A DNA stretch of 5,815 bases from a virus (Duplodnaviria; Heunggongvirae; Uroviricota; Caudoviricetes), in the IMG/VR virus record IMGVR_UViG_2740892211_000008; one strand, 5' to 3'. The translations under genes and the position numbers were made by a program. The notes beneath the pieces are model-generated. The model was not told the origin of the DNA, searched no databases, and saw nothing but the letters and a program-made list of their open reading frames with translations. Each line of letters starts with the position of its first letter. Positions within the stretch are counted from its first letter, which is position 1. Shown one piece after another: positions 1 through 5,642 of the stretch.

Positions 1-81
1 CAAAATCGGTGGAGCTGCATGACAAAGTCATCGGGCATTATCTGAACATAAAACACTATCAATAAGTTGGAGTCATTACCG
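1..81. repeat. Left copy of a perfect 81-bp inverted repeat at the window terminus
   Basis: Positions 1-81 are the exact reverse complement of 5735-5815 (81/81). Identity breaks at position 82 versus 5734. The repeat may continue beyond the window edge, which cannot be seen. Confidence 0.95.
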
Positions 82-2538: not shown

Positions 2539-3550
2539 AAAGGTGAAAACCGGCAGTTCATCCAGTAAGTCAGTATTGACCTGGCTTGCTGATATGTGCG
2601 GTGCCGATTTGTGTGCATACCCGTCTGTATCTGCACTGGCAGAAGTAACGGAACTGAACAAAAAGACTGTGCAGGACAGCTTACGACACCTGATGGAGAT
2701 TGGGTTAATTGTTGATACCGGTGAGAGAAAAGGCCGGACAAAACAAATTGTGGTGTACCGACTTATCGGTGTTGAAGAAAGTGTTACCGAGGATGAATAC
2801 ACCCAAAAACGGGAGTCTTTAAAGGTAGGTAAAATTGGTACTGTTAATAAAAACAGAACCGAAAACGGTTATGTTTCAGCACAAAACAGCCCCAAAAACG
2901 GAACTCTTTGCTGCATGGAAAATAACCAAAGACACCCAAATTTTCCATCAAAGACACCCAAAAACGGATCACGGAACCCAAAGGAACCCAAAGATTTAAA
3001 CCCCACACATAACGCACGCGAGAGTGCTCCGACCAGTGAGCAGGAAGTTTTGTCGTTACAGGCAGTCCCCCCTGTATTCCTGGATGGCCTGAGCGAACCC
3101 ATCGGAAAATTTCCGATGACCGATAACTGGTATCCGTCACGGGATTTTCGACGACGGGCTGCGTTGTGGGGGATGGCTTTGCCGGAGACAGAATTCACAC
3201 CTGCTGAACTTGCCGCATTCCGGGACTACTGGGCAGCGGAGGGGAAAGTGTTTACGCAGGTTCAGTGGGAGCAGAAATTCGCCCGTCACGTAAATCACGT
3301 CAGGGCGCAGGTTAAACCAGTCAGCAAGGGGGTAAACCATGCAGCAGCACCAGGTGGAACCGCATCACGGGCAGTTCAGGAAATTCGGGCAGCACGTGAG
3401 CAGTGGGAACGTGAAAACGGATTTATCAGCGACGGAAACGGCCTGGAAGCTGTGGGAGCTCATGGGGGAGGTTTATTCGAACCGCTGGACCCAGAAGAAC
3501 GGGGCCGCACCTTCGAAGCTCTGGATTGCACAGATTGGCGCGATGACTGA
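2510..3550 (+). CDS. Replication initiator, lambda O functional analogue, with N-terminal HTH/winged-helix and C-terminal DnaT-like region (346 aa from ATG 2510)
   Basis: Start placed at the internal ATG at 2510 (MSIDALRWAKKVKTGSSSSKSVLTWLADMCGADLCAYPSVSALAEVTELNKKTVQDSLRHLMEIGLIVDTG), a typical phage initiator HTH N-terminus. The C-terminal segment (TPAELAAFRDYWAAEGKVFTQVQWEQKFARHVNHVRAQ) resembles DnaT-like domains of prophage replication proteins. A low-complexity linker holds iteron-like DNA repeats. The last 212 bp overlap the P-like gene out of frame. Confidence 0.7.
   Translation: MSIDALRWAKKVKTGSSSSKSVLTWLADMCGADLCAYPSVSALAEVTELNKKTVQDSLRHLMEIGLIVDTGERKGRTKQIVVYRLIGVEESVTEDEYTQKRESLKVGKIGTVNKNRTENGYVSAQNSPKNGTLCCMENNQRHPNFPSKTPKNGSRNPKEPKDLNPTHNARESAPTSEQEVLSLQAVPPVFLDGLSEPIGKFPMTDNWYPSRDFRRRAALWGMALPETEFTPAELAAFRDYWAAEGKVFTQVQWEQKFARHVNHVRAQVKPVSKGVNHAAAPGGTASRAVQEIRAAREQWERENGFISDGNGLEAVGAHGGGLFEPLDPEERGRTFEALDCTDWRDD
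2856..2994. repeat. Iteron-like repeat cluster inside the O-like gene (putative replication origin)
   Basis: Repeated CCCAAAAACGG-type units at about 2858, 2891, 2932, 2955, 2975 and 2986 (for example GAACCGAAAACGG, CCCCAAAAACGG, ACACCCAAAAACGG, GAACCCAAAGG twice). An AT-rich stretch lies just upstream at 2821-2855. Lambda's origin is likewise iterons embedded in the O gene. Confidence 0.45.
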
Positions 3551-4944: not shown

Positions 4945-4981
4945 CGCGATAACGGTCAAAAATCATGGCGCTGACACTTTT

Positions 4982-5224
4982 GTGCCACTGGAGATGACTG
5001 TACCTAAGTTCAGGGGAGAAGAACACGTCCGGTGGGATGGTCGGGCCAGATTTAAAGGGCAGGTCATGGCTCCAGCCAGTACGCTGGCAATGGAGGCTGC
5101 CTGGCTGGAAATTGATATGGGAACCACGCCACTCAGGGATTTACTGCCGGTCCAGAGAATAAATTCCTGTTACGGTTACACCACTGTGATCTTGCAAGTG
5201 CAGGAAAGTAGGTCTACACGGTAA
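4982..5224 (+). CDS. Hypothetical ORF (80 aa from GTG 4982, or shorter from ATG 4994), possibly a gene remnant
   Basis: Open frame only. No good RBS for either start and no recognisable domain. Sits where the phage module gives way to the AT-rich right arm. Confidence 0.25.
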   Translation: MPLEMTVPKFRGEEHVRWDGRARFKGQVMAPASTLAMEAAWLEIDMGTTPLRDLLPVQRINSCYGYTTVILQVQESRSTR

Positions 5225-5450
5225 CGCGAGTGCGTGTAACTTTTGATGTTATTTCCGTAGAAACACCGGACAAATTTTCGCTGGCAGGTCATGCTGAAGG
5301 TATAAATCTGCAGATTATGGACAATTACGGATATCCGGCAAGAGCCGGAAAAAGCATGCCGCCTCTAATTCTCAGTGGAAGATGGACTTGATTATACTCA
5401 TTGCATTGTCAGAAATAGTTATCCATTAAAGGCTGGCTATTCCAAACAGG

Positions 5451-5478
5451 ATGTTGATTACAAAAATGTAATCAACAT
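5451..5478. promoter_or_regulatory. Perfect 28-bp palindrome (12-bp arms, 4-bp spacer), candidate operator upstream of the secreted-protein gene
   Basis: ATGTTGATTACA-AAAA-TGTAATCAACAT; the two arms are exact reverse complements. About 165 bp upstream of ATG 5643 and just upstream of a consensus -10. Confidence 0.6.
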
Positions 5479-5504
5479 GTAAGGTTTATACTCTTCAATA
5501 TGCG

Positions 5505-5510
5505 TATAAT
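5505..5510 (+). promoter_or_regulatory. Consensus -10 hexamer TATAAT, candidate promoter for the right-end gene
   Basis: Exact TATAAT at 5505-5510 in an AT-rich leader. No good -35 at 17 bp (AGGTTT), which suggests activator dependence or an extended -10 type promoter. Predicted start about 5517. Confidence 0.3.
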
Positions 5511-5642
5511 TTTCCTTATTTTGTTAACTTTAAATAACAAGCTATGCACGAGGTAAAGTCGGATAAGTTTATCTGGATGTAATATATATTATTTGTAGTG
5601 TTTATAACTTTATTTCATGATAACCAATAAAAGGAGTTTTTT

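Follow-up and report, generated by a model that had tools for sequence, protein, structure and literature searches.

The paa locus of the prophage window

The window analysed here, by which we mean the whole 5,815 nt stretch of IMG/VR record IMGVR_UViG_2740892211_000008, is the early region of a lambdoid prophage, carrying genes for a DicA-like repressor, a cro-like protein, YdaT, a DnaT-like/O protein, P and a DUF1627 protein, a gene set that agrees with the annotation of E. coli O103:H2 12009. CTTAGG/CCTAAG repeats, including CCTTAGgaaaatCTAAGG, flank the DicA-like repressor gene at 1165-1235 and 1700-1775, in the divergent repressor/cro region, and are probably the operators of the prophage immunity system. 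Towards the right-hand end of the window a fimbrial pseudogene remnant is followed by paa (also named adfO or acfC), which starts at the ATG at 5643 and whose intact product is an AcfC-family adhesin and solute-binding protein with the Pfam domain SBP_bac_11. Paa/AdfO serves widely as a virulence marker for EHEC, EPEC and porcine ETEC.

In the window paa is cut by an IS1 after 31 codons, with the junction at 5735/5736. The two extremities of the window (1-80 and 5736-5815) are the same IS1 end in inverted orientation, each 100% identical to annotated IS1A ends, and the paa::IS1 junction was not found among complete RefSeq E. coli genomes. Since the IS1 destroys the target gene, the element described below is a relic in this particular window. 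The promoter together with an intact paa occurs at ≥99% identity in IMG/VR prophage contigs and in about 575-590 complete E. coli genomes, among them O157:H7, O145, O111, O103 and O121 strains. The features of the region are as follows.

5443-5450, + strand: 5' flank CAAACAGG, related to AAACAGCCTGG ahead of the hiuH box
5451-5478, no strand assigned: prophage-allele palindrome, a perfect 12-4-12 repeat, ATGTTGATTACA AAAA TGTAATCAACAT
5457-5472, + strand: core box ATTACA-AAAA-TGTAAT (ATTACAAAAATGTAAT), matching the CusR/HprR box type
5478-5483, + strand: third half-site TGTAAG, at the -35 position
5505-5510, + strand: -10 hexamer TATAAT, exact consensus and the same in all alleles
5632-5636, + strand: paa Shine-Dalgarno AGGAG, within the invariant block 5627-5635
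5643-5735, + strand: first 31 codons of paa/adfO (AcfC-family adhesin) with signal peptide, truncated, 100% identical to intact paa
5736-5815, no strand assigned: IS1 end interrupting paa, 100% identical to annotated IS1A ends

The perfect 12-4-12 inverted repeat to which the first-pass annotation had drawn attention is indeed present at 5451-5478, where it is the longest perfect inverted repeat of the window, and the accompanying claim that it is improbable by chance holds: when the whole window was randomised with a first-order Markov model, 5 of 2000 replicates had arms of at least 12, and for the local region (28% G+C) the figure was 2 of 2000. The exact TATAAT that had been noted downstream starts 26 nt past the palindrome end and, as had also been said, lacks a good -35; a TTGACA-like hexamer was sought 16-18 nt 5' of TATAAT and none was found, and it is because this match is missing that a sigma-70 scan made no promoter call at 5505-5510. 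The -35 position is instead taken by TGTAAG, a direct repeat of the right half-site that lies 5 nt downstream of the core box and 21 nt before the -10 hexamer. With transcription predicted to start at about 5516-5518, the palindrome would lie upstream of the promoter and of the transcription start, rather than in the leader where it had been placed. The predicted leader itself (5517-5642, about 126 nt) is long and contains several conserved blocks, for example TTGTTAAC at 5521-5528 and TTTATCTGG. A search for conserved secondary structure in the leader returned nothing convincing, with an alifold consensus of only -4.6 kcal/mol and almost no covariation.

Conservation of the box and promoter among paa alleles

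In order to compare alleles, the upstream regions of the window and of nine diverged plasmid alleles from E. coli and E. albertii were aligned (n = 10), between-lineage identity upstream of the gene being 70-83%. The first-pass annotation had treated the whole 28-bp palindrome as the site, and this stands only in part. The inner 6-4-6 core is kept across alleles, ATTACA-AAAA-TGTAAT being identical in nine of the ten, whilst the full 28 bp is not: most alleles have other bases, through non-compensatory changes, in place of the outer left arm (ATGTTG), the left-arm extension is missing in six of the ten, and perfect 12-bp arms are peculiar to the prophage allele lineage. The conserved elements are ATTACAAAAATGTAATCAA (ATTACA-AAAA-TGTAAT plus CAA), GTAAGGT after three variable bases, and TATAAT, so that the conserved unit also takes in an asymmetric third half-site at the -35 position, beyond the palindrome as first described. 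GTAAGGT (5479-5485) and TATAAT (5505-5510) are invariant in all paa alleles, and together with 5461-5475 and the Shine-Dalgarno block at 5627-5635 they form the longest invariant runs 5' of the start codon; the run of 15 has a permutation p of 0.002 in a longest-run test. Since the outer left arm varies and the core and GTAAGGT are kept, the element is asymmetric, consisting of a 6-4-6 repeat with a right-hand extension to the -35 position. The TCAA that extends the right arm is invariant in the ten alleles and recurs in Paraglaciecola (see below), and is absent at hiuH, cusC and silC.

The sole allele with a variant core (ATTGCA, E. albertii pEA50_1) belongs to a pseudogene with a frameshifted paa. 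In this plasmid (L007, 2714-3400) the frameshift falls around codon 63, and an annotated IS481-family transposase gene starts at 3401. Foreign DNA inserted in different plasmids, including IS21 and Tn3 remnants, reaches almost to the box but never into it.

Occurrence of the conserved 19-mer at copper loci

An exact search for ATTACAAAAATGTAATCAA, with one genome per species, gave 66 matches, most of them chance or coding occurrences in A+T-rich taxa (for example in a conserved Bacteroidota gene); L015 and L026 are not copper loci. In Paraglaciecola arctica, P. polaris and one contig labelled Flavobacterium sp. W21 the 19-mer forms a 20-bp palindrome, CCATTGATTACAAAAATGTAATCAATGG, situated between genes for a response regulator and a kinase with a CusS sensor domain on one side and a divergent OEP+DUF411 operon on the other. 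The Paraglaciecola 19-mer also lies 5' of a copper P-type ATPase/cupredoxin/MerR operon, and in betaproteobacterial MAGs it adjoins genes for a CusA-like RND pump, DUF411 and a multicopper oxidase. It was because of these matches at copper loci that the E. coli CusR/HprR box was considered. In P. arctica the region 5' of the MerR/copper ATPase operon (L017, 5640-5730) has four or five GATTACA/TGTAATC half-sites beside an FNR-like TTGACcttgATCAA, a cluster that suggests multi-site CopR-type control plus oxygen control.

Similarity to hiuH and other CusR/HprR promoters

The published CusR/HprR box at hiuH is CATTACAAAATTGTAATG (PMC9302797; bioRxiv 2021.09.09.459708), and we located it in K-12 DNA at the published place (L138, 1370-1387), where it reads ATTACA-AAAT-TGTAAT. 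HprR and CusR are reported to recognise the same sequence (PMC8249747). An inverted repeat of this type (ATTACAAnnTTGTAAT / CATTACAAAATTGTAATG / ATGACAAnnTTGTCAT) is present at paa 5457-5472, and the paa core, (G/C)ATTACAAAAATGTAATC, agrees with the hiuH box at 15-16 of 18 positions, the 12 bases of the half-sites being shared in full. Read toward the regulated gene, and with the -10 hexamers of hiuH, cusC and silC assigned here by reading, the promoters are laid out as follows (box, spacer, third half-site, gap, -10).

paa: ATTACAaaaaTGTAAT, caaca, TGTAAG, 21 nt, TATAAT
hiuH: ATTACAaaatTGTAAT, gctgc, TGTAAG, 22 nt, TATCCT (-10 by present reading)
cusC: ATGACAatttTGTCAT, ttttc, TGTCAC, 22 nt, TAAAGT (-10 by present reading)
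silC, on sil/pco plasmids: ATGACAacatTGTCAT, tatcc, TGTCAC, 22 nt, TAAAGT (-10 by present reading)

The distance from the box centre to the first base of the -10 is 40.5 at paa and 41.5 at each of hiuH, cusC and silC, for which the -10s are those assigned here. The third half-site stands at an equal offset at paa, hiuH, cusC (TGTCAC) and silC, and at the DUF305 promoter described below. Agreement continues outside the box, since TGTAAGGTT downstream of it is common to paa and hiuH and the upstream flank AAACAGCCTGG is identical at hiuH and at the paa alleles of plasmids pE105-3 and pSTEC299, the window having CAAACAGG. As box and flanks both agree with hiuH, the paa promoter looks homologous to a hiuH-type promoter, beyond mere likeness of motif.

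The closest known counterpart is the hprR-hiuH intergenic region of K-12 with its hiuH-msrPQ promoter, which shares with paa the half-sites ATTACA/TGTAAT in a 6-4-6 arrangement, a third half-site 5 nt downstream and the absence of a -35. The two differ in the spacer (AAAA at paa, AAAT at hiuH), in the flanking bases (G/C...C against C...G) and in the gap to the -10, which is 21 nt at paa and 22 nt at hiuH, the paa hexamer being the consensus TATAAT. They differ also in context: paa is carried on lambdoid prophages and F-type plasmids without a divergent regulator gene, has a leader of about 126 nt, and in the prophage allele shows the extension to 12-bp arms. The chromosomal cusC promoter and the silC promoter of sil/pco plasmids share the three-half-site layout, whereas their half-sites are TGTCAT/TGTCAC, in place of TGTAAT/TGTAAG, and they sit between divergent regulator and efflux operons.

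Two further promoters bear on the comparison. pcoE is a plasmid-borne gene under direct CusR control via such a palindrome (PMC11195947), and the pcoA promoter carries ATTACAcgatTGTAAT; both are copper-resistance genes, whereas paa is annotated as an adhesin or solute-binding protein. The Legionella pneumophila effector gene lciE, with its LciR element, belongs to a homologous system and has a 7-bp inverted repeat, ATTACAAnnTTGTAAT, and two short elements before the -10 at a precise distance, all of them required for copper induction; in E. coli, CusRS mediates the copper induction of an lciE-lacZ fusion (PMC6989116). Like paa, lciE is a horizontally acquired virulence gene whose box and short elements keep a set distance from the -10. 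It differs in adjoining its own two-component system, whereas paa travels without one and would rely on the host CusRS/HprRS. No regulator or kinase gene was found beside paa in the prophage and plasmid contexts inspected. Adjacent two-component genes are usual for CusR/HprR targets, though not universal, pcoE being an exception.

A second box promoter upstream of paa on plasmids

A second promoter of this design, ATGACAaaaaTGTAAT-cctta-TGTAAG-21 nt-TAAAAT, is present on plasmids pE105-3 and pSTEC299, at 631-700 of the pE105-3 locus (L009) and 616-685 of the pSTEC299 locus (L011). It lies about 200 nt 5' of a DUF305 gene, which is followed by a YncE-like beta-propeller gene, the pair being directly upstream of paa; the gap of 21 nt between third half-site and -10 is the same as at paa. 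DUF305 is the CopM family of copper-binding proteins (PMC4335983), and this neighbourhood may represent the ancestral copper/oxidant-responsive setting of the cassette. In Edwardsiella, Enterobacter, Raoultella and on a Salmonella plasmid the more distant Paa homologues (73-84% identity) lack the box, and Cop/Cus genes were likewise not found nearby. The absence of the box from these homologues limits the link to the Escherichia paa lineage, so that it is not ancestral to the AcfC family.

Proposed regulation of paa

On these comparisons we read the palindrome as holding a predicted binding site for CusR/HprR (CopR group, OmpR family) within what would be an activator-dependent promoter of paa/adfO, a reading to which we assign a probability of about 0.75. 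The first-pass proposal of a site for a dimeric regulator of the right-hand gene is thereby supported by comparative evidence, with CusR/HprR as the candidate family and activation as the mode of action. The functional unit would comprise the inverted repeat ATTACA-N4-TGTAAT, centred about 52 bp 5' of the predicted start, then, after 5 nt, TGTAAG as third half-site in place of the usual -35, and the -10 TATAAT 21 nt past TGTAAG. Hydrogen peroxide or HOCl would be sensed via HprS and Cu(I) or Ag(I) via CusS, and likewise by PcoS/SilS in strains that carry them; the kinases would phosphorylate their cognate regulators HprR and CusR (PcoR/SilR where present), and the phosphorylated proteins would bind the box and third half-site and recruit RNA polymerase to the -35-less promoter, raising paa transcription under copper or oxidative/chlorine stress. 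We infer regulator binding, the transcription start, and the direction and size of paa regulation from sequence. The 12-bp-arm extension of the prophage allele is not required by this model, and the promoter would add a new, horizontally carried example to a class of regulatory sites already known.

The extension is the starting point of another explanation, namely that a different dimeric regulator, such as a TetR-like protein borne by phage or plasmid, reads the long 12-bp arms, the likeness to CusR/HprR sites being partial or secondary. The symmetry of the prophage allele does run well past the canonical box, and the right-arm TCAA, found in all ten paa alleles, is missing from hiuH, cusC and silC. 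We nevertheless regard this as unlikely. With the left-arm extension lacking in six of the ten alleles a symmetric 12-bp site is not conserved, TTGATTACAAAAATGTAATCAA in Paraglaciecola is found precisely at CusRS-type loci, the spacing of third half-site and -10 fits the CusR/HprR promoter class, and the paa cassette carries along no regulator gene. It is less probable still, in our estimate, that the palindrome has no present role, either because a hiuH-type fragment was carried along inactive or because the repeat was born as a recombination scar at the cassette boundary. Among alleles that otherwise differ by 17-30%, upstream conservation is highest at the box, third half-site and -10, the single mutated box goes with a pseudogene, and IS21, Tn3 and other insertions stop short of the box, all of which speak against a relic, even though the palindrome begins about 8-11 bp from the left homology limit of the prophage and plasmid cassettes, paa is dead in the window and distant homologues manage without the box.

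A role at the RNA level, in which the repeat would form a hairpin in transcripts reading through from the prophage or fimbrial genes upstream and serve as a terminator, a site of processing or a stabiliser of 3' ends, appears very improbable. The predicted fold of -15.1 kcal/mol (z = -3.5 against shuffles) would allow it, but the stem is A+U-rich with G-C at 3 of 12 pairs, its tail GUAAGGUUUAUAC is without a U-tract, and a terminator scan made no call; in most alleles the stem is down to 6 bp, by changes that are not compensatory. Conservation is moreover asymmetric and runs into the -35 region, which favours a protein site over a helix.

Several other candidates were rejected. The prophage immunity region uses the unrelated CTTAGG/CCTAAG repeats and the box is also found on plasmids without a phage, so it is not a phage operator. 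Nor is it a member of a repeat family, an alternative that the first-pass annotation had itself raised, or an IS end: the window holds one copy, nearly all of the E. coli genomes that have it hold it in a single place, which is always paa, and the IMG/VR matches are paa prophages or unrelated coding sequences. The earlier exclusion of CRP and FNR was upheld, as the arms have TTGAT and ATCAA at a distance of 12 nt in place of 4, and TGTGA/TCACA are absent. For ToxT/Rns-type AraC proteins, CpxR (GTAAA-N5-GTAAA), PhoP, IHF, sigma-28, EvgA, TyrR and LacI-family regulators the spacing fits worse than for CusR/HprR, in a by-eye comparison.

Expression data and implications

Published expression data for the copper link are only suggestive. 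In EDL933, Z2053 (acfC, i.e. paa) had a log2 fold change of 2.4 in rumen content, where cusC (3.5) and cusF (4.0) were also up; in rectal content Z2053 was up as well and the cus genes were not, whilst in small-intestine content at 6 h Z2053 was not raised and cusF was (PMC8524897, supplement). A transient rise in early stationary phase has been described for ECs1772, and paa has been reported as not Fur-regulated. hiuH, the closest counterpart, shows strong HOCl induction via HprSR and copper induction via CusSR (PMC9302797; bioRxiv 2021.09.09.459708).

According to a 2026 study, which reported RNA-seq as well as HprR ChIP-seq, HprR is needed for EHEC adherence and colonisation, adherence of an EDL933 hprR mutant is reduced, and the ChIP-seq in EDL933 gave 41 peaks, with a 27-fold peak at hiuH; paa is not mentioned in the text of that paper (PMC13064566). 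Our literature search found no paper tying paa/adfO to CusR, HprR or copper, and no account of how paa is regulated.

The CusR/HprR box would thus provide the first concrete and cheaply testable regulatory hypothesis for a common virulence marker, namely that copper and reactive oxygen or chlorine species turn on the adherence factor Paa, and would tie in with the role of HprR in EHEC adherence and with the use of copper as a feed additive. Few CusR/HprR targets are known in E. coli, and these are mostly beside the regulator genes. paa would be a horizontally acquired member of the regulon, parallel to Legionella lciE, and a prophage cargo gene ('moron') whose promoter plugs into a host two-component system.

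The paa cassette and its possible recruitment

More tentatively, and with rather less than even odds in our view, paa might have joined the copper/oxidant stimulon when it gained a promoter of the hiuH type, inside an ancestral mobile unit arranged [box]-copM-like DUF305-beta-propeller-[box]-paa. In that case host HOCl/H2O2 and copper, whether from nutritional immunity or from the copper-supplemented feed of pigs and cattle, would act through HprSR/CusSR to switch on directly an adhesin of EHEC, EPEC and porcine ETEC, which would offer a direct route to part of the hprR-mutant adherence defect. It would also follow that Paa may be primarily a periplasmic binding protein related to stress or metals, and not a dedicated adhesin.

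The unit common to prophages and plasmids extends from about 11 bp 5' of the palindrome to just beyond two hairpins 3' of paa, and, having a promoter and a terminator of its own, is typical of a cargo cassette; the flank at 5443-5450 marks its left limit. The hairpins, seen 3' of an intact paa (L001, 7603-7665), are CCACGTCCttcaGGACGTGG followed by a T-run and then ATGCCGCgccaGCGGCAT; both are kept in prophage and plasmid cassettes, at the right end of the mobile unit. To the left, about 4949-5441 is what remains of a fimbrial subunit gene, for which the O103:H2 12009 annotation gives a frameshifted pseudogene. Over its final ~50 bp it matches, at 88-92% identity, the 3' end of a fimbrial gene that lies ahead of an usher gene in UPEC 536 and many other strains, and the homology ends about 10 bp before the palindrome.
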